Part shown: positions 10,738 through 44,369 of the stretch, piece by piece | Layout: every line of letters starts with the position of its first letter | How positions within the stretch are numbered: the first letter of the stretch is position 1 | DNA from: Acidovorax sp. | Lineage (GTDB): Bacteria; Pseudomonadota; Gammaproteobacteria; Burkholderiales; Burkholderiaceae_C | Assembly (NCBI GenBank): GCA_030150585.1 | Contig: JASLFM010000190.1 | Location: 1-47,263, forward strand | Direction: 5' to 3' | Length of the DNA stretch: 47,263 nucleotides | Notes under the pieces: model-generated | Seen by the model: only the letters and a program-made list of their open reading frames with translations | What the model was told of the DNA's origin: nothing | Database searches by the model: none | Program-made: the position numbers and the translations under genes

Positions 10738-10745
10738 AGATCACG

Positions 10746-10779
10746 AGGCCCTGTAGCAATACAGGGCCTTTTCTTTTTT
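10746..10779 (+). terminator. Rho-independent terminator of tRNA-Lys
   Basis: Perfect 10-bp stem AGGCCCTGTA / TACAGGGCCT with a GCAA loop, followed by TTTTCTTTTTT. Confidence 0.85.
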
Positions 10780-10822
10780 GCTGCGAATTGTGTAGCACTG
10801 CACTGCTTAATTGATGGGGACA

Positions 10823-10853
10823 TGTTCCGCAATCAATGGCGCTGTTCCGCAAT
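10823..10853 (+). repeat. 11-bp direct repeat TGTTCCGCAAT x2 (10823-10833 and 10843-10853) at the left island border
   Basis: Read directly. The copies are 20 bp apart start to start, in the 255-bp non-coding stretch between the tRNA terminator and phaB. Confidence 0.6.
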
Positions 10854-11034
10854 TTCTCGTTCTCCGAGGCGCCAGGTCATAGGTCATGGTGTCTTCCTCT
10901 CCGCGATAACACCGGTGCAGGTTTTCACTGGGTCAATACAGTCAGCCTGGCCAGGACTGTCTGGCTGACCTTATGGCAAGCCATCATCATGCAGCCGCGA
11001 GGCGCAATTGATTCACGCTCGAGGAGTTGAGGCG

Positions 11035-11772
11035 TCATGCCATGTACTTGCCTCCATTGATCGACAGGGTGATGCCGGTGATGAAGCCGGCGTCTTCCGA
11101 GGCGAGGAAGACCATGCCCCGTGCGATCTCGGCTGGCGTGGCTAGTCGGCCGACGGGCACTTGCTTGAGTATCCCCAACATGACCTCCGAGGGTACGGCG
11201 CTGACCATCGCGGTATCGGTGTAGCCAGGAGCGATGGCATTGACGGTGATGTTGCGCGAGGCGCTCTCGAGTGCGAGCGACTTCGTGAAGCCGATCAGTC
11301 CTGCCTTGCTCGCCGCATAGTTACATTGCCCAGCTTGGCCAGCGAGGCCGTTGACCGAACTCATGTTGACAATGCGGCCGTAGCGGCGCTCCCGCATGCC
11401 CTCGATCACCGCGCTGCACATGTTGAAGCAGCCACCAAGGTTGGTGTCGATCACTTCGCGCCACTGCTCATGGGACATCTTGTGCAGCATGGCATCGCGC
11501 GTGATGCCAGCGTTGTTGATCAGTATGTCCACCGGGCCCACCTCGGCTTCCACCCGTGCCACGCCTTGGCGGCATGCGACAGGATCAGCCACGTTCCAAG
11601 TAAAGGCGCGAATGCCGGTTTGCTCGGAAAAATGCCGTGCTGCGTCGCCGTGTGAGCCATGGCTGACGACTACGCGATAGCCTGCTGCAAGCAGTGCTTG
11701 CGCGGCGGCTGCGCCGATACCAACGGTTCCGCCTGTTACGAGGGCAACTCGCATGTCAGCGCTGGCTTGCAT
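11035..11772 (-). CDS. phaB: Acetoacetyl-CoA reductase-like short-chain dehydrogenase (PhaB/FabG type)
   Basis: TGGxxGIG cofactor motif (VALVTGGTVGIGAA), NNAGITRD and SSVNG...YAASKAG (catalytic S, YxxxK). Overall the sequence looks very similar by eye to Cupriavidus PhaB. The start may instead be the ATG at 11754. Confidence 0.72.
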   Translation of the reverse strand: MQASADMRVALVTGGTVGIGAAAAQALLAAGYRVVVSHGSHGDAARHFSEQTGIRAFTWNVADPVACRQGVARVEAEVGPVDILINNAGITRDAMLHKMSHEQWREVIDTNLGGCFNMCSAVIEGMRERRYGRIVNMSSVNGLAGQAGQCNYAASKAGLIGFTKSLALESASRNITVNAIAPGYTDTAMVSAVPSEVMLGILKQVPVGRLATPAEIARGMVFLASEDAGFITGITLSINGGKYMA

Positions 11773-11847
11773 GGGGTCTCCTTAGGGCGGCGATGCAAGG
11801 GCCAAAGCCCATTCAAAGTAACTGTACGCAGGGCAACCTTGCCGCGT

Positions 11848-11861
11848 TTGCGCTGTATCAA
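11848..11861. promoter_or_regulatory. Candidate FNR/CRP-family box TTGCG-CTGT-ATCAA
   Basis: It sits in the 173-bp divergent spacer, with its centre 82.5 nt from the phaB ATG and 91.5 nt from the groEL ATG. Confidence 0.45.
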
Positions 11862-11945: not shown

Positions 11946-13571
11946 ATGTCTGCAAAGAAGCTGCTGTTTCGTGATGAGGCTCGCGACAAGATTCGCCGTG
12001 GCGTTGATACCCTGGCTGAGGCTGTCAGGGTGACGCTGGGTCCGCGCGGGCGTACTGTGGTGCTTGATCGTGAATTCGGTGCACCACAGATTGTCAATTC
12101 CGGCGTGGTTGTCGCAAAAGCGATCGAGTTGGAGGACCGGTTCGAGAACATGGGAGCGCAGTTGATGCGCGAAGTCGCTGCACGCACGAGCGAATTGGCG
12201 GGTGACGGCACCACCACGGCGATTGTGCTCGCGCACGGCTTGGTGCAAGAAGGCTTGAAGTATCTTGCCGCGGGAATGAATCCGATGGGGCTCAAGCGCG
12301 GCATCGAGCAGGCGATCGATGTTGTCGTGGCCGATCTGAAGCAGTTGGCCCAGCCCTGCGCCTCGTCGCAGGAAATTGCCCATGTCGCCGCGATCTCCGC
12401 CAACAACGACCGTTCGATTGGCGATCTCGTCGCGCAGGCGATGGACAGGGTAGGGCGCGATGGTGCGGTCTCGATCGAGGATGGATCGGGCATCGCGAGC
12501 CAGTTAGAGACCGTGGAAGGGCTGCAGTTCGACCGAGGCTATCTCTCTGCTTACTTCGTGAACAACCCCGAACGTCAGACCTGCGTGTTGGAGGATGTCG
12601 CGGTGCTGCTCTATGACCAGAAGCTCTCTGGCCTGCAGGAACTGGTGCCACTGCTCGAGGCTGCGGCAAAGGCGGGAATGCCCCTGCTGGTTGTCGCCGA
12701 GGATGTCGATGCGGAGGCGCTGGCAACCCTGGTCGTGAACAGCATCCGTGGGGTGATCAAGACCTGCGCCGTCAAGGCGCCGGGTTTTGGTGATCGCCGC
12801 AAGGCGATGCTGCAGGATCTCGCGCTCGTCACGGGCGGTGAGGTGATCTCCGCCGAACTGGGGTTGACCCTGGAGAAAGCCACGCTCGAACACCTCGGTC
12901 GCGCACGCCGTGTGGTAGTGGACAAGGAGTACACCACCATCGTCGGCGGCGCTGGCGACCCGTCCATGATTCGCGACCGCATTGCGACGCTGAAGAAAAA
13001 GCGTGAGAAGCCCACGAGCGACTACGACCGCGAAAAGCTGGACGAGCGCATCGCCAAGCTCTCGGGCGGCGTCGCGGTGATCAAGGTCGGTGCGGCTACG
13101 GAAACCGAACTCAAAGAGCGCAAGCTGCGTGTCGAAGATGCCTTGCACGCCACGCGTGCAGCCATTGAGGAAGGCATTGTTCCCGGCGGCGGGGTTGCCT
13201 TGCTGCGCGCGCGCAAGGCGTTGCAGGGGATCATCCTCCCGACGCTCGACGAAGATTCGGGCCTGAAGATTGTGGTGCGCGCGCTGGAGGAGCCAATGCG
13301 CCGCATTGTGCTCAACGCTGCGCAGGAACCATCCATCGTGCTGGATCGAGTCGATTCCGCAACGCAGGCGAGCTTCGGCTACAACGCGGCCAGCCACGAG
13401 TACGGCGATATGCTCGCGATGGGAGTGATTGACCCGGCGAAGGTGACGCGGTTGGCGCTCCAGAACGCCGGTTCCATTGCAAGCTTGATTCTCACGATCG
13501 ACTGTATGGTGGCCGATGCGCCCAAGAAGGAGTCGCCTTCACCGGCGATGCCAGCGGCCGAGATTTTTTGA
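11946..13571 (+). CDS. groEL: Chaperonin GroEL paralog (Cpn60) with no adjacent GroES
   Basis: ATG 11946 follows the RBS CAGGAGG. The sequence [40 protein letters not shown]...AGDGTTTA...IVPGGGVAL is present. The C-terminus ends ...[15 protein letters not shown] and lacks a GGM repeat tail. Confidence 0.9.
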
Positions 13572-13625: not shown

Positions 13626-13777
13626 GGCATCGGGCATGGCGTCTGCCACGCAGCATCGGCGATGCCGGAGGCCTGCTTCATGAGCTTCAACGGTAATCAC
13701 CGGTGATCAAGTAATCTCTACACCCCGAGATAGGTCGCTTCGGCGCCAAGCCGTCTCTGGAGAGCGTGTGCACCGCA

Positions 13778-16123
13778 TTAAGGTGCGGCGCGCGGCTCCG
13801 GATCGAGCGCCTCGGCAACGGCATCGTCGACTGTATCGAGGGCCACGAAGCGGATGGACTTACGCACGCTCTCGGGCACATCCGTCAGATCCCTTAAGTT
13901 GCGCGATGGAAGCAACACTGCCGACAAGCCGGCGCGCTGGGCTGCAAGCACCTTTTCTTTGATGCCGCCAACAGGCAGAACGAGCCCTCGAAGGCTTATC
14001 TCCCCAGTCATCGCGACGTCGTGGCGCACTTTCCGATCGGAGAAAAGTGAAGCCAGAGCGATGAACATGGCAACCCCGGCGCTGGGGCCATCCTTTGGAA
14101 CCGCGCCTGCCGGAATGTGCAAATGCACGTCGCATGCGTCGAATGCGCCAGCGGCGATGTGCAGTGCTGCAGCCTGGGTCTTTACCAGCGTGAAAGCGGC
14201 CTGCGCGCTCTCCTTCATGACATCGCCGAGTTGCCCCGTCAGGCGCAGTTTTCCGGTGCCCGGCAGGCGTGCGGCTTCGATGAAGAGAATGTCTCCGCCA
14301 ACAGGCGTCCATGCGAGGCCCGTCGCCACGCCCGTCAGGCTCATGCGAAGAGCGGTTTCGCGCTCGAAGGTGGCGGGTCCAAGTACCGCATTCAGCTCTG
14401 CGGCGTCCACCCGAACGATCGGCGACGTGCCCTCTGCCACCTGCATCGCGGCATGGCGCATGACCCGGCCGATCTCGCGCTCGAGCTGGCGCACACCCGC
14501 TTCGCGTGTCCGGTTGGCGATGATGTCCACGAGCGCGGCATCGGCCAGCACGCACTGGTCCTCTGCCAGTCCATTGGCGGCGCGTTGCCGCGGCACGAGG
14601 TAGCGGTGCGCTATGCCAAGCTTTTCCTCTTGCGAGTAACCGGGCAAATCAATCACCTCCATGCGGTCGCGCACAGGTCCCGGCACGTTGTCGATCACGT
14701 TCGCCGTCGCTATGAAGACCACCCGACTCAGGTCGAACGGTATCCCGAGGTAGTTGTCGTGGAAACTGTTGTTTTGCTCAGGGTCCAGCACTTCAAGCAG
14801 TGCGGCCGAAGGATCGCCATGCGCGCTCGCGCTGAGCTTGTCGACTTCGTCGAGCATCATCACTGCGTCACGAGCACCCGCCCGGCGCAGGCCTTGCAGG
14901 ATGTTTCCGGGCAGGGCGCCGATGTAGGTGCGCCGGTGGCCCCGGATTTCCGCCTCGTCATGCACGCCGCCAAGGGAAACACGGACGAACGGGCGTTGAA
15001 TGGCGCGGGCGATGCTCTGACCCAGCGAGGTTTTTCCTACGCCCGGCGGTCCCACAAAGCACAGGATCGGCGCACGCCCCTCCGGATTGAGCTTCTGTAC
15101 CGCGAGGAATTCGAGCACCCGCTTCTTGACGCGCTCCAGCCCATAGTGATCGGCCTCCAGTATCGCGCGCGCGGCCGCCAGGTCGATCGGCGCGGTCGCA
15201 GGGCTCTTCCATGGCAACTCGATCATCCACTCAAGATAGTTGCGCAGCATGGAGTATTCACCAGTGGTCTCCGGCATGGTGCGCAGCCGCTGCAGTTCCT
15301 TGCGCGCATGCGCCTCTGCATCGGCCGGCATGCCCGCTTTAGCGATGGCGTCCTCGATGCGATGCAGTTCTTCTGCGTTGGCATCGTCTTCGCCGAGTTC
15401 ATGGCGAATGGTCTCCATCTGCTGGCGCAAGAGAAATTTGCGTTGCGTATCGCTGATCTGCTCCTTGGTGCGTTCCCCAATCTCGCGGGAAAGGCGCACA
15501 ACTTCCAGGCGATGGGACAGCAGCTTAAGGAGCTTCTCCACGCGTGGCACCGTGGCGACCATCTCCAGGAGCTCCTGCTTCTCGTTCACGTCGATGTCGA
15601 TCACGCCTGCGACGATGTCGGAGAGTACCGACGGGCCACGCGTGGTTTGCATCGCCTGCACCAGTTCGGAGGGAACGCTGGGCAGCAACGAGAGCAGCTC
15701 GATGGCACGATCGCGGAGTTGGCTTTCAAGCGCTTCGCTTTGCGGCGAGTTATCGGCCTCCAGCTCGATGGGGGCGATCTTCGCTGCGAGAAAGGGGTAG
15801 CCGCCTATGGCTTCCAGCAGTCGAAAGCGCTGAATGCCATTGCATACCGCATGGTGCTGTCCTTGTTCAGGCTCTACATGGTGGACGACCCGAGCGAGCG
15901 TGCCGATGGTGTGCAGCGAATCGAAGGAGGGGTTTTCCTCCAAAGGGTTCTTCTGCAGCACCACGCCTACCGGGACTTCTCCTTCCAGTGCATGCCGAAG
16001 CGCGGCAATCGATGAATCCCGGCCGACGCTGATCGCAGTCAGCGCATGCGGGAACAAAACGAAATTTCGCATCGGAATCAGTGCAACGACACCGGGAGGA
16101 AGACTGGATTCGGGGTTTGCCAT
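13778..16123 (-). CDS. lon: ATP-dependent LonA protease (endopeptidase La) paralog
   Basis: 781 aa. It has an N-terminal LON substrate domain (ALIPMRNFVLFPH), AAA+ Walker A (GPPGVGKTS) and Walker B (VMMLDEVDK), plus an S16 protease domain with PKDGPSAGVAM (Ser) and GGIKEKVLAA (Lys). Confidence 0.92.
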   Translation of the reverse strand: MANPESSLPPGVVALIPMRNFVLFPHALTAISVGRDSSIAALRHALEGEVPVGVVLQKNPLEENPSFDSLHTIGTLARVVHHVEPEQGQHHAVCNGIQRFRLLEAIGGYPFLAAKIAPIELEADNSPQSEALESQLRDRAIELLSLLPSVPSELVQAMQTTRGPSVLSDIVAGVIDIDVNEKQELLEMVATVPRVEKLLKLLSHRLEVVRLSREIGERTKEQISDTQRKFLLRQQMETIRHELGEDDANAEELHRIEDAIAKAGMPADAEAHARKELQRLRTMPETTGEYSMLRNYLEWMIELPWKSPATAPIDLAAARAILEADHYGLERVKKRVLEFLAVQKLNPEGRAPILCFVGPPGVGKTSLGQSIARAIQRPFVRVSLGGVHDEAEIRGHRRTYIGALPGNILQGLRRAGARDAVMMLDEVDKLSASAHGDPSAALLEVLDPEQNNSFHDNYLGIPFDLSRVVFIATANVIDNVPGPVRDRMEVIDLPGYSQEEKLGIAHRYLVPRQRAANGLAEDQCVLADAALVDIIANRTREAGVRQLEREIGRVMRHAAMQVAEGTSPIVRVDAAELNAVLGPATFERETALRMSLTGVATGLAWTPVGGDILFIEAARLPGTGKLRLTGQLGDVMKESAQAAFTLVKTQAAALHIAAGAFDACDVHLHIPAGAVPKDGPSAGVAMFIALASLFSDRKVRHDVAMTGEISLRGLVLPVGGIKEKVLAAQRAGLSAVLLPSRNLRDLTDVPESVRKSIRFVALDTVDDAVAEALDPEPRAAP

Positions 16124-16153
16124 GGTTCACTCCATGCCGATGAGCCTCAGGTC

Positions 16154-16621
16154 TCAGGCAGCGTCGTGCCTACCGGAGTGGCCTATCGCGCCGATGCGTT
16201 GGAGGCGCTGCATAACCTCGGTTGCGCTCAGCGAGGTGAAATCGTTGCTGAGTGCTACGTCGACTCGTTCGTTGACACTTTCACTCAAGGCGTGCCTGAG
16301 TTCGCCAAGAAAGGGCTTCGCGGCCAGAATGGTCAGCGAGTCGAATTCACGCTTGGCAAGCCCTTCTTCTAATCGATCAGCCAGCGCACGGGCAAAAATC
16401 TGATGTTCCTTGCGACGAGGGTCGCAACGCGCTGCGAAGCGGTCGTCGTGGTGGTCTCGAACCCCGTGTTCGTGCCCTGCAGTTTCCGCCAGTTCTTTGG
16501 CGTGCATGCGGCTCTGCGCGTGTGCCAAGGCCTCGACGGGCTCTAGCCCGCTATCGGTGCCATCGTGCCGGAAGATACGGGCGAGCGAAGCATTGGCCAC
16601 CACGACCCATTGGTTTTTCAT
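16154..16621 (-). CDS. Host-attachment-family protein (Host_attach-like, function unknown)
   Basis: 155 aa. The opening MKNQWVVVANASLARIFRHDG... and the later HDDRFA / FA..LA..L pattern resemble proteins annotated as host attachment protein. It ends 30 nt upstream of the lon start. Confidence 0.6.
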   Translation of the reverse strand: MKNQWVVVANASLARIFRHDGTDSGLEPVEALAHAQSRMHAKELAETAGHEHGVRDHHDDRFAARCDPRRKEHQIFARALADRLEEGLAKREFDSLTILAAKPFLGELRHALSESVNERVDVALSNDFTSLSATEVMQRLQRIGAIGHSGRHDAA

Positions 16622-16654
16622 GGATTTCTCCTGGATATGAAAGGAGGACAGCGG

Positions 16655-16882
16655 TTAGCGGCGGGCTAGCAGAATGCCTGCGATCAGACCCGCGAAAGCC
16701 ATCGCAGCCATTGCGGTGTACGGGTGCTGGTGCATGCCGTCGTCTGCGGTACGCATTGCGTCTCGCGCTCTGGTTGCGACATCGCTGTGCCGCAGGTCAC
16801 CGAGGTCTTCAAGCACACGGCTCCACGTGTTCTTGGCGCACGCCGTGTTAGCGTCTGCGTTGCGGGTTGTTTCGTCGTTCAT
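16655..16882 (-). CDS. DUF883/ElaB-YqjD-family tail-anchored membrane protein
   Basis: 75 aa. It has a hydrophilic N-terminal part and the C-terminal signature HPYTAMAAMAFAGLIAGILLARR, typical of ElaB/YqjD/YgaM. Confidence 0.65.
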   Translation of the reverse strand: MNDETTRNADANTACAKNTWSRVLEDLGDLRHSDVATRARDAMRTADDGMHQHPYTAMAAMAFAGLIAGILLARR

Positions 16883-16945
16883 GGCCAGTGCCCTTCAAAG
16901 CAGTGAATTGATCAGCCCATGTTAGGAGGCGGAGTCGCGATGGGA

Positions 16946-16959
16946 CTGATACGCGTCAA
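16946..16959. promoter_or_regulatory. Candidate FNR-family box (gene-sense TTGAC-GCGT-ATCAG)
   Basis: Its centre is 70.5 nt upstream of the DUF883 ATG (16882), the first gene of the DUF883-host attachment-lon run. Confidence 0.5.
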
Positions 16960-17243
16960 GTATTCGCTCGCAGTTCTTTGCCGGTCGTATCGCCGAGGCA
17001 TGCGGAAGCGGAGGTCGACCTGGCTCTGGCCATGGAACGGCAAACTGTCTCGGCATGCCGCGCGAAAGTTCAGCCAGACAACGCCTTTGAGTTGTGCCTG
17101 CAGCCGCGATAAATGCCTGCCCTAGGGCAGGGGGGTGTGCGCGGATTCGATTCGACGAGTGCGGTGGTTCTGGTGGTCCCGTATTTGGCGAACTCAATGT
17201 GATCCGGCCCGACCTGTCCAGCACGAGGTAGGTCGGTGTTCCT

Positions 17244-17528
17244 GAGAAAGTCCAGCGCGACGCTGAGCAGCACTGGCGCGATGATGATGAAGAAGTTAGC
17301 TGCATCGCCGGCCGAGGCCGATATGGCGCTGGCGGCCAGCAGCGCCAACACGAGCGGGTTGCGAAAGCGCGCGGGGAATTGCAGCGCGAGATGTCGCTGG
17401 CTGCCTGCCTCCAGCATGTTAGGACCGTGCTGTGCCGGCCATTCCTTCGCCTGGGCTTGCGACAGCCCTTACGTCGCTGCTGCTGCGGGATCGAGCCACC
17501 ACGTGGAAGCGGGGCGAGGAGGTTTCAC
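17244..17528 (-). pseudogene. Remnant of a P-type cation-transporting ATPase (N-terminal domain plus TM1-TM2 only)
   Basis: Hand translation from GTG 17528, which is 8 nt after the usp stop: VKPPRPASTWWLDPAAAAT*GLSQAQAKEWPAQHGPNMLEAGSQRHLALQFPARFRNPLVLALLAASAISASAGDAANFFIIIAPVLLSVALDFL. This matches the Cation_ATPase_N pattern (GLSxxEAxxRLxxxGPNxL...QFxNPLxxxLL) and the first TM hairpin. There is an in-frame TAA at 17469-17471. Similarity ends about 95 codons in, whereas an intact enzyme has about 900. Confidence 0.6.
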
Positions 17529-17535
17529 GTCGTGG

Positions 17536-37313: not shown

Positions 37314-37780
37314 TGCGCGCCCCCCTGACTGCTGGCGAAATCTGTACGCGCAAGGTCATCTGGACTGATCCCAGCATGACGCTCGCCGAAGCTGCCCGGT
37401 TGATGCAGACGCACCATGTGGGCTCATTGGTGGTGACAGAGCTCCGCGCGGACCATGCGCGTGTGGTGGTCGGCATTCTTACCGACCGTGACATCAGCGC
37501 TGAACTGATCGCTGCCAAGCGCAACCTACACACTTTCCACGTAAGCGACATCATGAAGCGGGATGTGCTCACGGCCAGAGACCAGGATTCCATTTTGGAG
37601 CTGCTCTCCATGATGCGCCGAAAGCGCGTACGCCGTGTGCCCGTCACTAGCACAACGGGAGAGTTAATAGGCATCGTGACGATTGATGACATTCTCGCGG
37701 TCGTGGCACAGCAAATGCAGGCGCTCGCCGATGCGGTCGCGGCAGCTCGCGACCATGAGGTTCGGGGGGCGATGGTATGA
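37310..37780 (+). CDS. CBS-pair domain protein
   Basis: The start (GTG 37310 or ATG 37313) overlaps the nitroreductase stop. It has two CBS motifs (MQTHHVGSLVV...GILTDRDI and MRRKRVRRVPV...GIVTIDDIL). Confidence 0.85.
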   Translation: MMRAPLTAGEICTRKVIWTDPSMTLAEAARLMQTHHVGSLVVTELRADHARVVVGILTDRDISAELIAAKRNLHTFHVSDIMKRDVLTARDQDSILELLSMMRRKRVRRVPVTSTTGELIGIVTIDDILAVVAQQMQALADAVAAARDHEVRGAMV

Positions 37781-38139
37781 CATCCGCAAGATTTGCCGGC
37801 ATGGGATTCTCCAGCCCGAAAGACTGCACGCAGGCCGGTCGCACCGAATTCGGATCGAATGGCAACGTATGGACTGCCAACGCTTCGCAAGCGACGCCGG
37901 GATCCACATTCTTCGCTGATCTGCTCAACCAACTGGAGCGGCATGTCCTGGCGCAGTTTCCTCAAGGAATTGAATTTGCGCAGCAACTATTCCCAAATGA
38001 GTTGCGTGACATTCGGGAAGCCAAGGAACGTCTTGCAGAGGGGCAGTTCGGCCGCTGCGATCTTTGCGGTGAGTTCATTGGATTTCGCCGGTTGGTCATG
38101 CAGCCCACAGCGATGCTCTGCTCAGCTTGCTATCAATAG
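37777..38139 (+). CDS. TraR/DksA-family C4 zinc-finger protein
   Basis: ATG 37777 overlaps the CBS stop (ATGA). The C-terminal C-x2-C-x17-C-x2-C (RCDLCGEFIGFRRLVMQPTAMLCSAC) has exactly the DksA/TraR spacing. The N-terminal 70-80 aa are not recognisable, so the true start may be internal. Confidence 0.68.
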   Translation: MTSARFAGMGFSSPKDCTQAGRTEFGSNGNVWTANASQATPGSTFFADLLNQLERHVLAQFPQGIEFAQQLFPNELRDIREAKERLAEGQFGRCDLCGEFIGFRRLVMQPTAMLCSACYQ

Positions 38140-38243
38140 GAAGTGGCTGCGGCGACAACTATTTTCATGCACAGACGCTGCCGCCTAGGCTCATCGAGCG
38201 TGAAGCAACAGGCACCCATCATCACTCTGCCAGGAGAAATTTC

Positions 38244-38897
38244 ATGAAGACCGACGACCAACTGAAGAAAGATGTGATCTCTGAGTTGCACTGGGACGCC
38301 TCCATCAATGCCACGCGGATCGGTGTGGCCGTGAACGATGGAATTGTGACGCTGAGTGGTCAGGTGGACAACTATTTGCAAAAGCACGCCGTAGAGCGTG
38401 CGGCGCGCCGGGTGGCAGGTGTGCGTGGCATTGCCGTCGACCTTGAGGTTGCGCTTTCATCCGAGCACAAACGCAGCGATACCGATATCGCGCAGGCAGC
38501 GCTGAATGCGTTGCGCTGGCATGCACTGGTTCCCCACAATCAAATCACGGTGGAAGTGGAACAGGGCTGGGTAACCCTCTCCGGCAAGGTGGACTGGTCT
38601 TTTCAGGCGATGAACGCCGAAAAGTGCATACGGCCACTGGTTGGCGTGAGAGGTGTTTCCAACGAAATCCAGCTGAAGCAACAGGTCAATCCGGAGGACC
38701 TTCGGAAAGATCTCATTGCGGCGCTTAATCGCCACGCAGTGCGTGAAGCCAATCACATAAAAATTGATGTTGACGGTTGCGTCGTCACGCTCAGCGGGCA
38801 TGTCGACTCATTGCCTGACCATGATGCCGTCATCGGCGTAACGAGTGTCGCGCGCGGTGTTTCGCGCGTCATAGACCACCTGGAGGTAGGCGCCTGA
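38244..38897 (+). CDS. BON-domain protein (OsmY-like, three BON repeats)
   Basis: ATG 38244 follows the RBS CAGGAGA. Repeated units of the form V.V..G.VTLSG.V (VAVNDGIVTLSGQVD, VEVEQGWVTLSGKVD, IDVDGCVVTLSGHVD) are each followed by V.GVRGI/V. Confidence 0.85.
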   Translation: MKTDDQLKKDVISELHWDASINATRIGVAVNDGIVTLSGQVDNYLQKHAVERAARRVAGVRGIAVDLEVALSSEHKRSDTDIAQAALNALRWHALVPHNQITVEVEQGWVTLSGKVDWSFQAMNAEKCIRPLVGVRGVSNEIQLKQQVNPEDLRKDLIAALNRHAVREANHIKIDVDGCVVTLSGHVDSLPDHDAVIGVTSVARGVSRVIDHLEVGA

Positions 38898-38992: not shown

Positions 38993-39448
38993 ATGTCAAA
39001 CACCAACAAGCGAGGCAATAGCGCCGACCATAGCGCCTCATCGGCGGATGTAACAACTTCTGTCAACGATGCGCAACGTGTTCAGATGCGCCTTGCCACA
39101 GAGGCACTATGTGCGGTATTCCGTGGCTTTGAGAACATGCGGAAAGTGCAGGAGCATGCCGCTCACCGTGCGTTGACGCACCATGCGTCTGCAGTGGAGC
39201 GATTGAAGGGGCCGTGCGAGCTGGCCGATCTTCTGAGCATCCAATCGGACCTGCTGAAGTTCGATTTCGAAAGCGCAACGCAGTACTGGCTGGGCTTATG
39301 GATGGGCTCCATACGAATGCAGAATGAGCTGTCAAACTGCGGCCTTCATCTCATGGAAGAAGATAGCCTGCGACAGGCCACGGACGCTTGGCAAAGGATG
39401 CCCCTGTTTCAGATGAGCGGCTACGAGCACTCCGCAAGCCCGGGCTAA
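38993..39448 (+). CDS. Phasin-like (PHA granule-associated) protein, tentative
   Basis: RBS AAAGGAG. Segments FRGFENMRKVQE, LKGPCELADLLSIQSDLLKF and YWLGLWMGSIRMQNEL line up by eye with the Phasin_2 pattern of Cupriavidus PhaP1 (FEGVEKLVEL, AKDAQELLAIQAAAVQP, YTRHLYEIASETQSEF). Confidence 0.5.
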   Translation: MSNTNKRGNSADHSASSADVTTSVNDAQRVQMRLATEALCAVFRGFENMRKVQEHAAHRALTHHASAVERLKGPCELADLLSIQSDLLKFDFESATQYWLGLWMGSIRMQNELSNCGLHLMEEDSLRQATDAWQRMPLFQMSGYEHSASPG

Positions 39449-39603
39449 AGCCGCGCATGCTCAGGGATTGGCGTTCATTCTCCGCAGGCAGGATTCGCCG
39501 CAGCGAGGCCGTTGTACGCTGCTGATGGGAAACGACGATTGACCCCATGATTGCTGGGGGTCGAAGGGATTGTTTACGGACCGCAAGGGCTGTGAGCGAA
39601 TGG

Positions 39604-40434
39604 ATGTATTTCCAAATGCATGGCACGTGGCTCCACCGTTCGATTGCTTGGGTGTTTGTGTTCTGCTCCTTTGCGAGGGCCGCTAATTTGGCTAGCGACT
39701 CCCCTGCGAGTCCTGAGGAGTTGGCGCAGGTATATCGCACCCAGGTGGATCGCCAGCTGGCTGTTCCCGTCTCGGCGCTTCCTCGTTATGCGGAACTAAC
39801 GGAGGAGGCTTTTGCGCAGGCTGCAATCACCCCTGGCCATTCACAATATGTAGTTGTGATAGACCGCAGCCCCGTTGTTCAGGCCCTGTTGCTGCTGTGG
39901 CGCAAGGCCCGAGGTGAGTACGTATTCGTAGGCGCATCGCCCGTGTCTACCGGGCGACCAGGCGGCTTTGATCACTTCATGACTCCCTTGGGGGTCTTCG
40001 ACCATACGCCGGCCAATCCCGATTTTAGAGCGGAAGGAACGTTCAACAGAAACGGTGTTCGCGGATATGGCATCAAGGGGATGCGTGTCTTTGACCTGGG
40101 TTGGCAGCCCGCATCAAAGGGTTGGGGAGATGGTGCCCTCTTGAAGATCCGCTTGCAAATGCATGCCACAGATCCGGATTTTCTGGAGTGGCGTCTCGGC
40201 TCAGCGCAGTCCAAGGGATGCATTCGCATTCCATCCACGCTGAATCAACTGTTCGATCAATATGGCGTAATCGACGCGGCATACGATGAAGCTGAACTTG
40301 CTGGTGCCGCGCTCTGGGTGCTGAGAGCAGATCGGAGGCCTGTGGCTGGCGCCGGTCGGTACATCGTCATCGTTGACAGCGCTGGTGTGGAACGTCCAGA
40401 TTGGAGTCCTGTGCCGAGATCTCCGGGGCGGTGA
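39604..40434 (+). CDS. L,D-transpeptidase (YkuD) family protein
   Basis: Signal peptide (WLHRSIAWVFVFCSFARA) and the catalytic motif HATDPDFLEWRLGSAQSKGCIRIP (His...Ser-x-Gly-Cys-Ile-Arg). The start could be at 39604 or 39616. Confidence 0.72.
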   Translation: MYFQMHGTWLHRSIAWVFVFCSFARAANLASDSPASPEELAQVYRTQVDRQLAVPVSALPRYAELTEEAFAQAAITPGHSQYVVVIDRSPVVQALLLLWRKARGEYVFVGASPVSTGRPGGFDHFMTPLGVFDHTPANPDFRAEGTFNRNGVRGYGIKGMRVFDLGWQPASKGWGDGALLKIRLQMHATDPDFLEWRLGSAQSKGCIRIPSTLNQLFDQYGVIDAAYDEAELAGAALWVLRADRRPVAGAGRYIVIVDSAGVERPDWSPVPRSPGR

Positions 40435-40468
40435 TCGGCAGCATACCCTTCAAGAGAAAAGGTATGGC

Positions 40469-41119
40469 ATGAGCAATTTTCTGTTTTCTGACAGGGTGCA
40501 GGCCGCTGAGAAGCTCACGCAGAAACTCCGGAGCTACATCGACCAGCATGTATTGATCCTGGCAATCCCCCGAGGTGGAGTTCCCATTGGAGCCGTACTG
40601 GCAAGTCAGTTGCGGGGCGAACTCGACGTCGCCATGGTGCACAAGTTGGGGGCGCCAAGCAGCCCGGAACTGGCTATCGGCGCGATCGACGAGGCGGGGC
40701 GCGTTTGGCTGGAGCCGTATGCGCACATGACAGACAAAAGCTATATCGATGCAGAGGCGGGAAGGCAGTTGATGGAGATTCGCCGCCGGCGCGCCCTGTA
40801 TGCGTCTGGACGTGCACCCACTGCTGTAGCGGGGCGTGTGGTTATCGTTGTGGACGACGGGCTAGCAACGGGGGCCACGATGACCGCTGCATTGAGGGCT
40901 GTGCGGGAGCTTCGGCCTCTGAGGCTGGTCTGTGCCGTGCCTGTGGCTTCTGTGGAAGGTATCGAACGGGTGAGGCACTTGGCAGATGAAGTGGTGTGCG
41001 TGGACTACCCCGCTGAGTTTGTTGGGGTCGGTCAGTTCTATGGCTCGTTCCCACAAGTGAGCGATAGTGAGGTAATCGCCCTGCTAAACGGTGGTGCAAC
41101 TAACGGCCCTGGCCAGTGA
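40469..41119 (+). CDS. Phosphoribosyltransferase-domain protein
   Basis: ATG 40469. It has FSDRVQAAEKL...LILAIPRGGVPIG and the PRPP-binding loop VVIVVDDGLATGATM. Confidence 0.85.
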   Translation: MSNFLFSDRVQAAEKLTQKLRSYIDQHVLILAIPRGGVPIGAVLASQLRGELDVAMVHKLGAPSSPELAIGAIDEAGRVWLEPYAHMTDKSYIDAEAGRQLMEIRRRRALYASGRAPTAVAGRVVIVVDDGLATGATMTAALRAVRELRPLRLVCAVPVASVEGIERVRHLADEVVCVDYPAEFVGVGQFYGSFPQVSDSEVIALLNGGATNGPGQ

Positions 41120-41314: not shown

Positions 41315-41328
41315 ATGACAGCTGTCAG
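41315..41328. promoter_or_regulatory. FNR-family-like palindrome ATGAC-AGCT-GTCAG (core TGACAGCTGTCA is a perfect 12-bp palindrome)
   Basis: Read directly in the 437-bp gene-free gap. Its half-sites are the same as the boxes at 36598 and 42656. Confidence 0.35.
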
Positions 41329-41410
41329 ATTCTGCTGCGGCACATGTATTAGATTCTTCATGTCATCGTTCACCGGATGGTGCTGCCGACTGCGAAAGCG
41401 TGGCGGAACT

Positions 41411-41556: not shown

Positions 41557-42561
41557 CTAGGGTATGAGAACCGCGGCACCTTCCAGAGTGCCATTCCGGA
41601 CAGCCTGTACAGCCGTATTGGCCTCTATCAAAGAATATGTCTGTACATGGGTCGTGACGTGGATGGAATTGAGCAAGGTGAAGAATGCTTGCGCATCGTT
41701 GCGCGTCAAGTTTGCTACCGACCTCAGCTCTCGCTCTCCCCAGAGCAGGGAGTAGGGAAGCGCCGGTATGGCGCTCATGTGAATCCCGCCGCACACCACT
41801 ATTCCGCCTTTGCGTACGCGCGCCAGAGCAAGCGGAACCAGCTGACCACTCGGTGCGAAGATCAATTGGGCGTCGAGTGCAATCGGCGGTGGCATATCGC
41901 TATCGCCTGCCCATATGGCGCCCAGATTCTTTGCAAAGGCCTGTCCCCTTGTGTCGCCGGGCCGGGTGAATGCGAATACTTCCTGGCCGTGGGCAACGGC
42001 CAGTTGACACACGATGTGCGCCGCGGCCCCGAACCCCCAAATGCCGATGCGCCTGGGCTCCATTCCGCCAGCAAGCCGCCAAGTCCGGTATCCAATGAGT
42101 CCCGCGCATAGCAGAGGAGCCACATGGGCGTCGTCGTAGCTATCTGGCAAGGGAATGCAGAAGCGCTCGTCGGCGGCCGCATACTCTGCGTACCCGCCAT
42201 CGCGGTCGTAGCCCGTGAATACAGGCTCGTCGCAGAGGTTCTCCCGTCCCATGTGGCAGAACGCGCATTGGCCGCATGTGCCGCCAAGCCATGGAATGCC
42301 GACACGTTGGCCCACCTCAAAGCGCACAGCCCCCAATCCACGGGCGACGACCTCGCCCACGATCTCATGCCCAGGAACGACACCAGCACGGTGCGGTTGC
42401 AACTCGGCGTCGATAACGTGTAGATCGGTGCGGCACACGCCGCAAGCGCGGACGCGAACCAAGACGTCCTGAGCCTCAAGTTGAGGCAACGGCTTTCGTA
42501 CCAAGAGGAGTTGGTGCGAGGCGGTGTCGGCCTGCATCGCACGCATTGTTGCGGGCAGCAT
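41557..42561 (-). CDS. Zinc-dependent alcohol dehydrogenase (AdhP-like MDR)
   Basis: VRVRACGVCRTDLHVIDAEL...GHEIVGEVV (catalytic Zn), CGQCAFCHMGRENLC (structural Zn) and IWGFGAAAH (Rossmann). The start may be ATG 42546 (MRAMQ...) rather than 42561. Confidence 0.9.
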   Translation of the reverse strand: MLPATMRAMQADTASHQLLLVRKPLPQLEAQDVLVRVRACGVCRTDLHVIDAELQPHRAGVVPGHEIVGEVVARGLGAVRFEVGQRVGIPWLGGTCGQCAFCHMGRENLCDEPVFTGYDRDGGYAEYAAADERFCIPLPDSYDDAHVAPLLCAGLIGYRTWRLAGGMEPRRIGIWGFGAAAHIVCQLAVAHGQEVFAFTRPGDTRGQAFAKNLGAIWAGDSDMPPPIALDAQLIFAPSGQLVPLALARVRKGGIVVCGGIHMSAIPALPYSLLWGERELRSVANLTRNDAQAFFTLLNSIHVTTHVQTYSLIEANTAVQAVRNGTLEGAAVLIP

Positions 42562-42594
42562 GGCTGCATACTAGTCTTGGCGTGCATGACGTGA

Positions 42595-42608
42595 TTGAGA
42601 TCGCGCAA
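42595..42608. promoter_or_regulatory. Candidate FNR-family box TTGAG-ATCG-CGCAA
   Basis: Its centre is 40-64 nt upstream of the possible ADH start codons (42561, 42546, 42537). Confidence 0.4.
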
Positions 42609-42655
42609 TAGCCATTGGGGTGGTGCATGCATCTTCCCTTCAACCGTCACAGAAC

Positions 42656-42669
42656 ATGACGGTTGTCAG
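42656..42669. promoter_or_regulatory. Candidate FNR-family box ATGAC-GGTT-GTCAG, overlapping an 8-bp inverted repeat AACCGTCA-N7-TGACGGTT (42642-42664)
   Basis: Read directly in the 285-bp divergent ADH/GGDEF spacer. Confidence 0.4.
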
Positions 42670-42846
42670 CAGGCGTTGTCAAGGGGTGCGCTGGAATCAA
42701 GACTCTGGAAACCTTGGAGATGCAAAATGGGCCTGTTTGCACTCGTGATGGATGCCGTACCTCCAATCGCGAACCCAGTGATTTCCCGGAGGGAAATGCG
42801 TGGCCGATGGGGGGTGATTTCTGTTCTGTTGGTCGTCAGGTAGCCC

Positions 42847-44211
42847 ATGCTGGTATCTCTTGTGACTGCGTCGGAAGCAGCCCTGCGCGCCATGGCCATG
42901 GCGCTGGACCAACTCGAAGTGGCCATGTGTGTCTTTGACGATGAGGATCGGACCATCCTCTGGAATGACACCTTCCTGCTTTTCTTTCCGGAGCATGCGG
43001 GTCATGTGTTTGCGGGGGAGCATTACCGGGAAAACCTGCGGCGTTTCTATCGGCAGAGACTGGCCCCGGACGAGTTGCCCTCGATGGAGCGCTACATTGA
43101 AGAGGGAGTTCTGCGCCATCGCGGGCAGCAGCGTCCCTATGAGTTCGATCACCATGGCTACCGGGTGCGGGTGGCGTCCCTGCCGCTGGGAAATGGCAAC
43201 CGGGTGCGGCTGTGGCGCAAGACACAACCCTTGCTCACGGGAATGCAGGATTGCCTCAATCCACTGGCAGCGCCGTTGCCAGCATCCATCTCACCGGATA
43301 CGGCGATGGCGCTGGAAAGTCTGGCAGATGGCGTTCTGATGGTGGATGGACAGGAGCGCGCTGTTTGGGCCAACCATGCTTTTCTGGTGCTGTACGGCCT
43401 GTCCAGCATCGTGGATTTGGCCCGGCGCCGGTTCGACGAAATCTACGCCGGGGCATGGCTTGGTGAAGAACCCACGCCAGGCTATGCCGCAGGGCTTGAG
43501 ACATTGAAAGAGCGGCAGCGCTTTTCTGGAGCGCCCTATGAATTGGCGCTACCGCGGGACCGCTGGGTGCACATCGTCGAACTGCGTGGCACGCAGGCCA
43601 ATGGGAACAGTTTCTTCTCGCACATGGACATTACAGAGTCCAGGCAGCAACAAGAGGAGCTCAAGCGCCTGACCTTGCGCCTGGAGTCGCTGGCTGTGAC
43701 GGACGCATTGACCGGGCTGGCCAACCGCCGGCGATTTGACGAAGTTCTGGAGGCCGAGTGGCGCCGGGCCCAGCGTTCGGGGGCGACTCTGTCGCTGCTC
43801 ATGGTGGATGTGGACCACTTCAAGCACCTCAATGACACCTATGGGCATCCGTTCGGTGACGAGGTGCTCAAGCGCCTCGGTGGTGTGTTGGCCAACAGAG
43901 TGCAACGTGCTGGGAGTCTGGTCGCGCGCTATGGGGGCGAGGAATTCGCAGTGCTGCTGCCGGGAACCGACGCTCGGGAGGCTTGGGAGTTGGCGGAGTC
44001 CATCCGGCAGATGGTGCAGGATCTTGTGCACCAGGATGAGCGGACCGGGCCTGTTGGGGCAACTGTCAGCATCGGCGTGGCCTGTGCAAGGGATCTGGCG
44101 CTGCATGCACCCAGCGCTACGCTGGTGGACATGGCGGACCGAGCGCTTTACCAGGCCAAGGGTGCGGGGCGCAACCACGTCACCTGCGCTGAAGGAAATC
44201 TCACACGCTGA
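42847..44211 (+). CDS. Diguanylate cyclase with N-terminal PAS-like sensor domains (GGDEF, no EAL)
   Basis: 454 aa. The GGDEF domain has DALTGLANRRRFDE, MVDVDHFKHLNDTYGHPFGD and RYGGEEFAVLL (active-site GGEEF). Confidence 0.9.
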   Translation: MLVSLVTASEAALRAMAMALDQLEVAMCVFDDEDRTILWNDTFLLFFPEHAGHVFAGEHYRENLRRFYRQRLAPDELPSMERYIEEGVLRHRGQQRPYEFDHHGYRVRVASLPLGNGNRVRLWRKTQPLLTGMQDCLNPLAAPLPASISPDTAMALESLADGVLMVDGQERAVWANHAFLVLYGLSSIVDLARRRFDEIYAGAWLGEEPTPGYAAGLETLKERQRFSGAPYELALPRDRWVHIVELRGTQANGNSFFSHMDITESRQQQEELKRLTLRLESLAVTDALTGLANRRRFDEVLEAEWRRAQRSGATLSLLMVDVDHFKHLNDTYGHPFGDEVLKRLGGVLANRVQRAGSLVARYGGEEFAVLLPGTDAREAWELAESIRQMVQDLVHQDERTGPVGATVSIGVACARDLALHAPSATLVDMADRALYQAKGAGRNHVTCAEGNLTR

Positions 44212-44369
44212 TCCGCGTTGAATGGTGGGTCCACGCACAGAGGCATCCTGCCCCATGCGGAAATCAATGGGGCTGTGCGGGTGTCGTTACGGATCGTGGA
44301 GCCTTGGGCCACGGATCGCATAGGCTATAAACCGGGCTTGACCATTTCTCTCTCGAAAACACCAACACC

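Follow-up and report, generated by a model that had tools for sequence, protein, structure and literature searches.

A low-GC block at tRNA-Lys of an Acidovorax-like genome with a predicted FNR-type low-oxygen stress regulon

Introduction

Does the stretch of low-GC DNA that follows a tRNA-Lys gene in an Acidovorax sp. contig represent a foreign element, and do its genes form one regulon? We analyzed a 47,263-nt contig (the window; JASLFM010000190.1), in which an original prediction, made from sequence alone, had described an old or immobilised island with a complete lxa-like and DosR-like stress regulon. Our data point to a strain-specific island that an Acidovorax-like genome probably acquired horizontally, at an insertion hotspot beside tRNA-Lys(UUU), and that is likely to encode a self-contained FNR/Anr-type low-oxygen stress regulon. 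Besides about 28 genes for stress and storage functions, the block holds its own predicted oxygen-sensing-type FNR regulator.

Results

A compositionally distinct block begins at tRNA-Lys

In sliding windows, GC content drops from 0.66-0.72 in the flanks to 0.55-0.65 inside ~10.5-44.5 kb, and a two-change-point maximum-likelihood fit places breaks at ~10.0 and ~44.9 kb (log-likelihood gain 127; GC 0.68/0.60/0.69). The block itself, positions 10738-44364, spans 33.6 kb with a GC of 0.60 and a GC3 of 0.67. GC3 averages 0.84 +/- 0.04 in 17 flank genes versus 0.67 +/- 0.05 in 29 island genes (Mann-Whitney p = 3e-8), with minimal overlap between the distributions, and tetranucleotide usage correlates at r = 0.87-0.91 among thirds of the island versus 0.71-0.83 between island and flanks. 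These measures bear out the compositional discontinuity first proposed from GC counts of 60-nt lines, all five of which were exact. The GC3 values are unameliorated, and the old age originally suggested for the block does not fit them. Spacers are indeed longer in the island (median gap 104 nt versus 0 nt in the flanks), with six gaps of 326-467 nt; the range of 300-650 bp given earlier was overstated, because three genes lie within the supposed spacers (a universal stress protein (USP) gene at 21199-22035, a TraR/DksA gene at 37777-38139, and a lipoprotein gene at 35770-36348). Island gene lengths equal those of their homologues, so the genes look functional.

The left anchor of the island is tRNA-Lys(UUU) (10662-10737, + strand; ttt anticodon; ARAGORN, Rfam 75 bits). 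Homology to the closest relatives ends exactly at its 3' end, at 10738-10739 (alignments to loci L004, L031 and L016; blastn to L004 and L101), which is where the island had been predicted to start. The terminator hairpin 3' of the tRNA (10745-10770, +) lies within island-specific sequence and differs from relative to relative in the same three alignments.

In relatives, tRNA-Lys marks an insertion hotspot

None of the ~80 related Comamonadaceae loci that we fetched carries the block at the tRNA-Lys site, while the 12 left-flank genes remain syntenic in them. Two relatives encode tyrosine integrases, 92.6% identical to each other, directly beside tRNA-Lys, and unrelated inserts separate the tRNA from a conserved perM-sucAB block; the site is thus an insertion hotspot. 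The backbone is Comamonadaceae and Acidovorax-like, as originally proposed. The best homologues of the island proteins come from Variovorax, Caldimonas, Ideonella and Sphaerotilus, and Acidovorax is absent from their best 120 matches. The GC and GC3 step, the tetranucleotide likeness of the island thirds, the absence of the block in relatives, the stop of homology at the tRNA and the non-Acidovorax homologues together argue for a foreign origin. Because the island GC of 0.60 is lower than in any relative that we identified for its genes (0.66-0.70), we assign no donor.

The same region could instead be native and vertically inherited, its low GC arising from local mutation or selection. [quoted passage not shown] A GC3 difference of 0.17 with sharp edges at a tRNA, a locus that lacks the block in every relative fetched, and nearest homologues outside Acidovorax make vertical inheritance very improbable.

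How the block arrived is not accounted for by any integrase, att repeat or transposase. In agreement with the original claim of no mobility genes, we found no integrase or transposase in the island, no remnant there of the relatives' integrases or of an IS3 transposase, and no second copy of the tRNA 3' end that reaches 11 nt or more. A sister strain carries an IS3 element that ends at ~41307.

The right junction falls at hupB

The first right-flank gene is hupB (HU; 44370-44681, +; Pfam; GC3 0.83), a possible recombination or assembly junction. The right edge of the island lies between ~44318 and 44364: a metagenome contig of 99.8% identity ceases to match upstream of 44365, with promoter similarity lingering back to ~44318. 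In relatives, the ancestral neighbour of tRNA-Lys is perM-sucAB and not the right flank from hupB onward, and the best named matches of the right-flank epimerase are Brachymonas, Castellaniella and Pusillimonas (Brachymonas/Alcaligenaceae-type), not Acidovorax. The proposal that the block simply inserted between tRNA-Lys and hupB is therefore not supported.

These observations raise the alternative that DNA of different community members was joined during assembly, at hupB alone or at both tRNA-Lys and hupB, so that the GC step would mark a species boundary at one or both ends. Both junctions fall on very conserved sequences: relatives share an identical tRNA, and hupB shows 98.4-99.8% nucleotide identity among contigs whose neighbours differ. 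Two independent short-k assemblies (Logan contigs with the island end) break off at 44397, which is 28 nt into hupB, and the match of a third contig begins at 44365 and is preceded by other sequence, so that the assembly graph branches at hupB. One left-flank contig also stops inside tRNA-Lys, and the missing att repeat and integrase fit a mis-join as well. However, the flank-island-flank pattern, with GC3 of 0.75-0.90 on both sides, would require two independent mis-joins, and insertions at tRNA-Lys are demonstrated in relatives. The complete lack of housekeeping genes over 33 kb is expected of an accessory island and would be unusual for a stretch of genome taken at random. Flank and island, moreover, occur together in two unrelated sequencing projects and diverge alike, at 99.1% (left flank) and 99.4% (island) in run SRR18106137, and at 99.6% (island) and 99.8% (right flank) in runs ERR11479751 and ERR11479748. 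We therefore regard an assembly artefact as unlikely, if a good deal less so than vertical inheritance. Assembly could have mis-joined the contig at hupB, but this would affect the right limit only, leaving island and regulon real.

The island encodes a predicted oxygen sensor and FNR-type promoters

Several regulatory genes lie in the middle of the island (Pfam assignments throughout). The first two-component system (22954-25808, +) pairs a dCache-PAS-HisKA_3 kinase (start within 22801-22954, end 25170, +) with a NarL/LuxR-type response regulator (25167-25808, +; best PDB match NarL) that is a generic member of the NarL family. It is followed by the CRP/FNR regulator FNR1 (25911-26687, -), which contains a Cx2Cx5C motif and a central Cys. 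FNR1 matches Aliivibrio fischeri FNR (5E44/8QTO, solved with [4Fe-4S]) at E = 1e-47 with all four cysteines aligned, and is predicted to be a [4Fe-4S] oxygen sensor. A conserved regulatory module (27155-30611, mixed strands) then comprises an OmpR-type response regulator (27155-27886, +), its paired PAS-GAF-HisKA-REC hybrid kinase (27883-29901, +) and FNR2 (29898-30611, -), which is of the CRP/FNR type but lacks the Cys cluster. The GAF domain, originally implied for the NarL-type partner by the DosR parallel, thus belongs to the hybrid HisKA kinase. Variovorax RA8 and PDNC026 show the same module order (57-74% identity); Caldimonas has the same three genes, but with FNR2 upstream of the regulator.

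An unbiased dyad search over 4.9 kb of island intergenic DNA returned as top palindromic dyads TTG-N8-CAA (9 versus 1.4 expected), TGA-N6-TCA (8 versus 1.3) and TGAC-N4-GTCA (4 versus 0.075). Six boxes in this DNA are each followed by a TANNNT -10 hexamer at a distance of exactly 21 nt, with none at 14-20 or 22 nt; shuffled sequences averaged 0.038, and none of 1000 shuffles reached six. The composite of box, 21 nt and TANNNT occurs seven times in the whole 47-kb window, each time in island intergenic DNA. In consensus and in their position near -41.5, the boxes match class II FNR/Anr promoters.

Boxes with this type of promoter precede a PhaB-type SDR gene (box at 11848), a DUF883-baeRF12-lon operon (box at 16946-16959, 21 nt, TAACAT), the tandem-domain USP gene (21125), the Hsp20 gene (22780) and the Zn-ADH gene ADH1 (35614, with a second box at 35722). 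The DUF883-baeRF12-lon box and its TAACAT -10 element are also present in the orthologous promoters of V. ureilyticus and of a metagenome locus (L103, L094). A perfect TTGATCCTTATCAA box lies at 22877, near Hsp20, and a CTGACAACCGTCAG box at 36598, ahead of the nitroreductase run. An orphan FNR-type promoter at 41315-41355 (+; ATGACAGCTGTCAG, 21 nt, TAGATT) has no annotated gene downstream. The four cysteines of FNR1, the six boxes and the box conserved in Variovorax together point to a self-contained, oxygen-responsive regulon on the island.

Stress and storage genes of the putative regulon

At low oxygen, FNR1 would retain its [4Fe-4S] cluster and dimerize, as its four conserved cysteines suggest. 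It would then bind TTGA(C/T)-N4-(A/G)TCA(A/G)-type boxes, which by their geometry lie ~41 nt upstream of the transcription start, and turn on at least five units: the phaB-like SDR, DUF883-baeRF12-Lon, the tandem USP, Hsp20, and ADH1 with an AAA_33 fusion protein. Judging from family knowledge and the characterised lxa locus, the products may serve four functions. Proteostasis would involve an orphan GroEL paralogue (11946-13571, +; Pfam Cpn60; no adjacent GroES gene), Lon (13778-16123, -; Pfam) and Hsp20/alpha-crystallin (22095-22526, -; Pfam). The acetoacetyl-CoA-reductase-like, PhaB-type SDR (11035-11772, -; Pfam adh_short 1.8e-58), a class I PHA synthase (PhaC; 30977-32716, +; Pfam PhaC_N and PHBC_N), a phasin (38993-39448, +; Pfam), ADH1 (34477-35586, -; Pfam) and a second Zn-ADH (41557-42561, -; Pfam) could provide a redox sink and carbon storage. 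ADH1 shares the segment 32839-35586 with the fusion protein, which has a C-terminal AAA_33 kinase domain (32839-34272, -; Pfam).

Translation and growth arrest may fall to DUF883 (16655-16882, -; Pfam) and baeRF12/Host_attach (16154-16621, -; Pfam), both encoded with Lon in one operon (13778-16882, -); to single-domain USP1 (17536-17994, -; Pfam Usp 1.5e-28) and tandem-domain USP2 (21199-22035, +); to a Pat-like protein lysine acetyltransferase with CoA-ligase-like, ATP-grasp and GNAT domains (18100-20793, -; Pfam); and to a CBS pair (37310-37780, +; Pfam) and a TraR/DksA C4 zinc finger (37777-38139, +). The last two belong to a gene run (36675-38897) that starts with a nitroreductase (36675-37313, +; Pfam) and ends with a triple-BON protein (38244-38897, +; Pfam). 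Envelope remodelling would involve this BON protein and a YkuD L,D-transpeptidase (39547-40434, +; Pfam). FNR2 and both two-component systems may supply further inputs, as may a PAS-GGDEF diguanylate cyclase whose GGEEF motif is intact (42847-44211, +; Pfam). The cyclase gene is the last of the island, and a JGI metagenome scan gave no close homologue of it. The island also encodes a phosphoribosyltransferase (40373-41119, +; Pfam), a predicted lipoprotein with no Pfam family (35770-36348, +; translation) and the predicted P-type cation ATPase remnant, which is real and N-terminal (17070-17468, -; translation). Pfam confirmed nearly all of the originally proposed inventory; besides the NarL partner kinase, it differs in a missed baeRF12/Host_attach gene and in the USPs, where two genes with three USP domains replace the three genes claimed.

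USPs, Hsp20, Lon, GroEL, BON, DUF883/ElaB-type proteins and PHA genes are typical of general stress, and the block might accordingly be a stationary-phase or envelope-stress cluster that is not oxygen-specific, its boxes serving another signal (NO, redox or carbon status) or its genes being driven mainly by the two-component systems. FNR2 lacks Fe-S cysteines, four of the boxes have a GCGCAA half-site unlike that of classic FNR, and about half of the island transcription units, including the nitroreductase operon, GroEL, PhaC and GGDEF, have no box of canonical geometry. Against this, FNR1 aligns its four cluster-ligand cysteines with a solved oxygen-sensing FNR, the box consensus and spacing fit class II FNR/Anr promoters, and the homologous B. 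cenocepacia lxa genes, otherwise largely silent, are induced 2- to 240-fold by 6% oxygen (PMC3721108). A cluster without oxygen specificity is accordingly improbable, and we favour the low-oxygen regulon.

Relationship to lxa, Variovorax clusters and DosR

The lxa locus contains USPs, Hsp20, BON, nitroreductase, ADHs, PhaB/PhaC, CRP/FNR and two-component systems, and its motif is TGA-N6-TCA (PMC3721108). The island shares these protein families and has that motif among its top dyads, but the claim of a complete and identical inventory did not hold: an lxa-homologous Burkholderia region, used as a proxy, has homologues for 13 of the 29 island genes at 26-58% identity and shows no collinearity, and the island lacks lxa functions such as class II RNR, PfkB, Ack/Pta, FtsH, cytochrome c and SulP. 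By sequence comparison, the island is only loosely lxa-like and no orthologous lxa copy. The proposed DosR parallel likewise stands at the family level only; the NarL-type system has no GAF kinase and a generic regulator, and no DosR box is present in the island.

The island is closest to Variovorax-type clusters rather than to Burkholderia, and Variovorax clusters match 20 of the 29 genes at up to 90% identity. We thus place the island as a Comamonadaceae (Variovorax-type) representative of a loosely conserved Burkholderiales cluster class whose studied example is lxa, that is, as a new example of a known locus type and not a new kind of system. The PhaB-type SDR is 71-81% identical to Variovorax proteins and 55% to the lxa proxy, to which Zn-ADH 2 is 58% identical; the Pat-like acetyltransferase is 72% identical to that of Variovorax RA8, and GroEL is 86% identical to metagenome locus L097. 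In Variovorax ureilyticus, the DUF883-baeRF12-Lon operon is conserved at 82.9% nucleotide identity, and the same USP and Cation_ATPase_N fragment are found at 79%.

A lower-GC block lies between tRNA-Lys(UUU) and hupB

The window, which is one entire NCBI contig of 47,263 bp, changes in GC content from 0.68 to 0.60 and back to 0.69 along its length (two-change-point fit; log-likelihood gain 127). GC3 is 0.84 in the 17 flank genes versus 0.67 in the 29 island genes (p = 3e-8), median gene spacing is 0 nt in the flanks and 104 nt in the island, and coding density is 98% and 86%, respectively. All five 60-nt GC spot counts behind the original prediction of an island were exact on recount, and the GC profile has a sharp-edged step at both ends of the block. 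In alignments to the nearest relatives, similarity vanishes directly past the tRNA 3' terminus. The other edge was placed with a metagenome contig: it shares 99.8% identity with the window across hupB and the gene that follows, but parts from it upstream of 44365, apart from a weakly similar promoter-like stretch reaching back to ~44318. The loss of homology at the tRNA and the divergence of the hupB contig thus bear out the proposed limits of the block, 10738 to ~44320-44364.

The left flank (the first 10.7 kb) carries mltG, tmk, holB, a PilZ gene, tatD, an ankyrin gene, an ABC exporter, tolB, pal, cpoB, a ThiF-family gene and tRNA-Lys(UUU), a gene order common to ~80 Comamonadaceae loci. The nearest left flanks are those of Acidovorax MAGs, with a 93% identical CpoB protein and 86-87% identical flank DNA. 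We considered and rejected a recombination tract in thiF, where the identity to relatives, 0.80-0.81 versus 0.82-0.91 elsewhere, is only slightly lower and fits a less conserved gene. The right flank (44370-47263) encodes HupB, an HTH protein, a TIGR01777 epimerase, an SDR and the C-terminus of a photolyase/cryptochrome-related protein, and has the appearance of an accessory cluster. The best named matches of the epimerase are from Brachymonas denitrificans (85%), Castellaniella and Pusillimonas; its top 120 matches include no Acidovorax protein.

Metagenome assemblies bear on whether the block is correctly joined to its flanks. Two independent Logan contigs match the right end of the island at 99.4-99.6% identity and both end 28 nt into hupB; a third contains hupB with a different upstream region, and a left-flank contig ends inside tRNA-Lys. 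Short-k Logan assemblies from two projects (the ends of contigs L099, L100 and L002) break in the first 28-33 nt of hupB (44365-44397), so hupB must have two or more different genomic neighborhoods in the communities sampled. An exact 37-nt pattern across the left junction had no match in JGI metagenomes, and a search for records identical to the SDR protein encoded next to the tRNA (11035-11772, minus strand) came back empty. A mis-join at hupB is possible because of the contig stops inside the tRNA and hupB, the alternative upstream region on the third contig, and the epimerase matches outside Acidovorax. Against a double chimera, GC3 is host-like on both flanks, and the divergence of flank and island matches in two unrelated projects. 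We consider it unlikely that either junction, or both, is an artefact of assembly, and the evidence for an island at tRNA-Lys with its regulon holds whether or not hupB is mis-joined.

The tRNA-Lys(UUU) site is an insertion hotspot

The block was absent after tRNA-Lys in every relative in which the tRNA core could be located (0/53, from ~80 loci with a syntenic left flank). Many relatives have tRNA-Lys followed directly by perM and sucA-sucB-lpd, and others have unrelated DNA between tRNA-Lys and this conserved block. Tyrosine integrases that are 92.6% identical adjoin tRNA-Lys(UUU) in Acidovorax kalamii (L028, 32-1126 downstream of the tRNA) and in a near-relative Logan contig (L101 9327-10388). 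These varied inserts and integrases show that the tRNA-Lys(UUU) site is a multi-use insertion hotspot. At the same position lie an HsdR-like type I restriction gene in locus L045 and, in the closest MAG (L004), a gene for a 1028-aa repetitive surface protein.

The block resembles tRNA-linked islands in its atypical composition with sharp edges, its position at the tRNA 3' end, its strain specificity, and the integrase elements found at the same tRNA-Lys in relatives. It differs from them in having no integrase, direct repeat of the tRNA end or transfer genes, and in that its far end adjoins hupB and not the ancestral neighbor. We found no integrase or transposase remnant, as the original prediction had held: tblastn searches with the L101 and L028 integrases and the IS3 transposase of contig L099 gave no match better than E = 0.19. 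Neither a 32-mer query (up to 3 mismatches allowed) nor any of the 11-14-mers revealed a second copy of the tRNA-Lys 3' end in the window; since the window ends 2.9 kb past the block, an attR may lie farther out. An Rfam scan of the window returned the tRNA alone. There is also no simple empty site, since the contigs with identical hupB (L001-L003) match neither the island nor the tRNA-Lys flank upstream of that gene.

The best homologues of the island proteins are from Variovorax, Caldimonas, Ideonella and Sphaerotilus rather than Acidovorax, and this, together with unameliorated GC3, supports a fairly recent horizontal acquisition. The donor was not found, because all relatives of the genes lie in DNA of 0.66-0.70 GC. 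A sister strain (99.4% identical; L099 1-997, SRR18106137) carries an IS3-family transposase (HTH_Tnp_1 orfA plus orfB) at ~41307, just upstream of an orphan FNR-type box, and the island is therefore subject to IS activity in the population.

The island encodes a stress-related gene set

Pfam searches and manual reading confirmed the gene families originally reported for the island, with corrections to the USP count, the kinase domains and the spacers. Two USP genes are present instead of three, with three domains between them: USP1 (17536-17994, minus strand) and a tandem-domain protein, USP2 (21199-22035, plus strand). A Host_attach/baeRF12 gene sits between DUF883 and Lon, and supposed spacers hold genes for a lipoprotein (35770-36348) and a TraR/DksA finger protein (37777-38139). 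The NarL-type regulator is partnered by a dCache-PAS-HisKA_3 kinase, and the PAS-GAF kinase is of the hybrid HisKA type with an OmpR-type partner.

The reported P-type ATPase remnant is a real fragment. Its pairing with USP1 (17070-17994, minus strand) is conserved in Variovorax ureilyticus (L103 17987-18661; 79% nucleotide identity), where the fragment is called as a 72-aa Cation_ATPase_N ORF. The truncation is therefore older than this island copy, and the fragment is either an old remnant or a functional mini-protein.

The operon encoding DUF883 (ElaB-like), baeRF12/Host_attach and Lon (13778-16967, minus strand) is conserved in V. ureilyticus (L103 9153-12347) and in a metagenome contig (L094 7900-11102), and its protein lengths of 75, 155 and 781 aa are the same in V. 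ureilyticus. baeRF12/Host_attach is an eRF1-like core domain, and since baeRF families have been tied to ribosome hibernation (Burroughs and Aravind, PMC6514570), this operon may link proteolysis to translation arrest under hypoxia. The PAS-GGDEF protein at the end of the island (42847-44211) has an intact GGEEF motif; in a JGI metagenome scan, its relatives, near-identical strain copies aside, reached at most 41% identity over most of its length and 52% over the GGDEF domain. With no full-length relative above ~41% for this protein in that scan and a Lon that is 90% identical to that of Variovorax, the island is a mosaic.

Predicted island promoters share an FNR-type box of fixed geometry

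An unbiased search of 4.9 kb of island intergenic DNA returned TTG-N8-CAA, TGA-N6-TCA and TGAC-N4-GTCA as the top palindromic dyads, with TGA-N6-TCA observed 8 times versus 1.3 expected. [quoted passage not shown] Six boxes are followed by a TANNNT hexamer after exactly 21 nt, and none at 14-20 or 22 nt. These lie upstream of the phaB-like SDR gene (box at 11848), the DUF883-baeRF12-lon operon (16946), the tandem USP gene (21125), the Hsp20 gene (22780), and the alcohol dehydrogenase gene ADH1 (34477-35586, minus strand) with the AAA_33 fusion gene (35614), with one orphan site at 41315. The window contains 7 copies of the composite of box, 21 nt and TANNNT, all within intergenic DNA of the island. 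For boxes at the 21-nt spacing, shuffled controls of that DNA had a mean of 0.038, and 0/1000 reached six. The fixed 21-nt distance places the box center ~41 nt upstream of the expected start, a geometry that, judged from sequence, would be that of class II FNR/Anr promoters (TTGAT-N4-ATCAA type, near -41.5). Both V. ureilyticus (L103) and the metagenome orthologue (L094) retain the box and TAACAT hexamer upstream of DUF883.

Two composites have no annotated gene downstream: 41315-41355 (plus strand), in the gap between the PRT gene and the alcohol dehydrogenase gene ADH2 (41557-42561, minus strand), and 13677-13717 (plus strand), between the convergent groEL and lon genes. The first is followed by a 66-aa ORF (MSSFTGWCC...). 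These composites could drive small proteins, sRNAs or antisense transcripts.

The island encodes two CRP/FNR proteins. FNR1 (25911-26687, minus strand) matches the solved [4Fe-4S] FNR of Aliivibrio fischeri at E = 1e-47, with the four cysteine ligands (Cx2Cx5C plus a central Cys) aligned. FNR2 (29898-30611, minus strand) lacks the four Fe-S cysteine ligands and is syntenic with the PAS-GAF hybrid kinase module. From the promoter boxes and the FNR1 ligands, the island regulon appears likely to be under oxygen control. A variant box, TTGA(C/T)-N4-GCGCAA, lies upstream of SDR, USP1, FNR2/phaC and ADH1 (11848, 18090, 30759 and 35614, respectively), and also occurs in related clusters (L094 5053 and 16726; L097, a metagenome locus, 6130; L103 17808). 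Boxes with the GCGCAA half-site may mark a second regulator, perhaps the cysteine-less FNR2.

Related clusters and regulons

Loci from Variovorax contain homologues of 20 of the 29 island genes, at 30-90% identity. We compared the island with these low-oxygen/stress clusters (Variovorax sp. RA8, sp. PDNC026, V. ureilyticus and related metagenome contigs) and found four shared elements: DUF883-baeRF12-Lon (82.9% nucleotide identity), the USP gene with the ATPase_N fragment, the OmpR regulator with the PAS-GAF hybrid kinase and FNR2, and the SDR-ADH pair. Beyond such small modules the order is scrambled, and the Variovorax clusters match their hosts in GC (0.66-0.70), are scattered across as much as ~100 kb, and in the loci read are not beside tRNA-Lys. 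We found no description of these clusters in the literature searched, and they are apparently uncharacterized.

As in the Pseudomonas aeruginosa Anr and Escherichia coli FNR systems, the island combines a regulator bearing Cx2Cx5C and a central Cys with a TTGAT-N4-ATCAA-type box in class II position, and USPs are among Anr/FNR targets (PMC3721108, PMC12071387). Unlike those regulons, the island packs the regulator and its predicted targets into one transferable block and has no respiratory or denitrification genes.

The proposed parallel to the Mycobacterium tuberculosis DosR (DevR) regulon holds at the level of families, with alpha-crystallin, tandem USPs, a nitroreductase, CBS, P-type ATPase and PRT proteins and a NarL-type regulator in common (see also PMC3721108, PMC12071387). 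The parallel fails at the level of control. A search for the DosR box (GGGACT-N2-AGTCCC core, up to 2 mismatches) gave 0 matches versus 1.6 expected by chance, and the island HisKA_3 kinase is of dCache-PAS type and lacks GAF domains, whereas the DosR kinases are tandem GAF HisKA_3 proteins. Among PDB matches of the NarL-type regulator, NarL ranks best, NarL and VraR stand above DevR, and DevR is fifth; the regulator is a generic NarL-family member. The resemblance to DosR is analogy and not membership, and control in the island, unrelated in its logic, appears to be of FNR type.

The island is lxa-like without being an orthologous lxa locus

Acidovorax and its relatives are aerobes of habitats with fluctuating oxygen. 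To our knowledge, aerobe survival of oxygen loss has been worked out in few models only (lxa, Anr and DosR). The lxa locus of B. cenocepacia J2315 spans BCAM0275a-BCAM0323 (Sass et al. 2013, PMC3721108), and whole-cluster co-induction at low oxygen, with an anoxia survival defect on deletion, has been shown only for B. cenocepacia (PMC3721108). As a proxy for lxa, we used a region of the 1.44-Mb replicon of Burkholderia sp. FXe9 (PLSDB), identified by its BCAM0276-0311 gene order and the annotation "BCAM0308 family protein". Against this proxy, only 13/29 island genes have a homologue, at identities of 26-58%, and there is no collinearity. ADH2 (58%), SDR (55%), nitroreductase (50%), Hsp20 (48%) and BON (45%) are the best matches.

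The lxa core family set is present in the island (Pfam). Both are large contiguous clusters with USPs, Hsp20, BON, a nitroreductase, two Zn-ADHs, PhaB/PhaC, an Anr-related CRP/FNR protein and two two-component systems; the TGA-N6-TCA FNR-like palindrome recurs in the intergenic DNA of both; and a CBS protein and an AAA-family ATPase (36% identical to the AAA_33 fusion) lie beside the Burkholderia proxy cluster. They differ in USP genes (6 in lxa; 2, with 3 domains, in the island) and in the cation ATPase, which lxa has and the island retains as a fragment only. None of the island genes encodes the lxa metabolic functions class II RNR, PfkB, acetate kinase/Pta, FtsH, cytochromes, SulP or MBL-fold RNase, some of which occur in related Comamonadaceae clusters, and the lxa ABC transporters are likewise absent. 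Extra to lxa, the island has GroEL, Lon, baeRF12, DUF883, Pat, the PAS-GAF hybrid kinase module, YkuD, PRT, TraR/DksA, phasin and GGDEF proteins. In GC content lxa matches its host, and it has no link to a tRNA; the GC of the island, which adjoins a tRNA, is 8 points lower than that of its flanks. By gene content and promoter motif, the island belongs to the same loose class as lxa and would be lxa-like in its working, without being an orthologous lxa locus.

The original prediction is thus confirmed as an observation and supported in part as an interpretation. The locus is a known kind of system and not a new type, and it yields a clear regulatory prediction that can be tested. It shows that lxa-like gene sets are not confined to Burkholderia. 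Such a set can sit at a tRNA hotspot as a compositionally foreign, strain-variable block, and here carries its own FNR sensor along with predicted promoters of identical geometry. Its roughly six predicted promoters, single regulator and deletable 33-kb extent make the island a compact test case that could show whether anoxic persistence is gained in a single transfer. A far-reaching reading, which we think quite improbable, is that of a portable "anoxic-persistence" regulon with its own FNR1 sensor and target promoters, spread among Comamonadaceae without integrases by homologous recombination at tRNA-Lys/hupB anchors. The edge at 44318-44364, which resembles a diverged hupB promoter, would then be a trace of the donor hupB locus, and the conserved FNR-driven DUF883-baeRF12-Lon operon would link ribosome silencing to proteolysis in oxygen starvation.

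A 2.4-Mb replicon of Burkholderia multivorans has a nucleotide match to the island GroEL gene, but the surroundings of that match are not those of lxa. On the 278-kb plasmid of Cupriavidus sp. USMAHM13 (NZ_CP017753.1, 234-275 kb; L088), we found genes for Hsp20, GroEL adjoining a nitroreductase homologue (46%), and two CBS proteins; lxa-like sets therefore do occur on plasmids. The same plasmid region also encodes a PAS kinase, an MBL-fold hydrolase, a polysaccharide deacetylase, PhaZ and an IS30 transposase.
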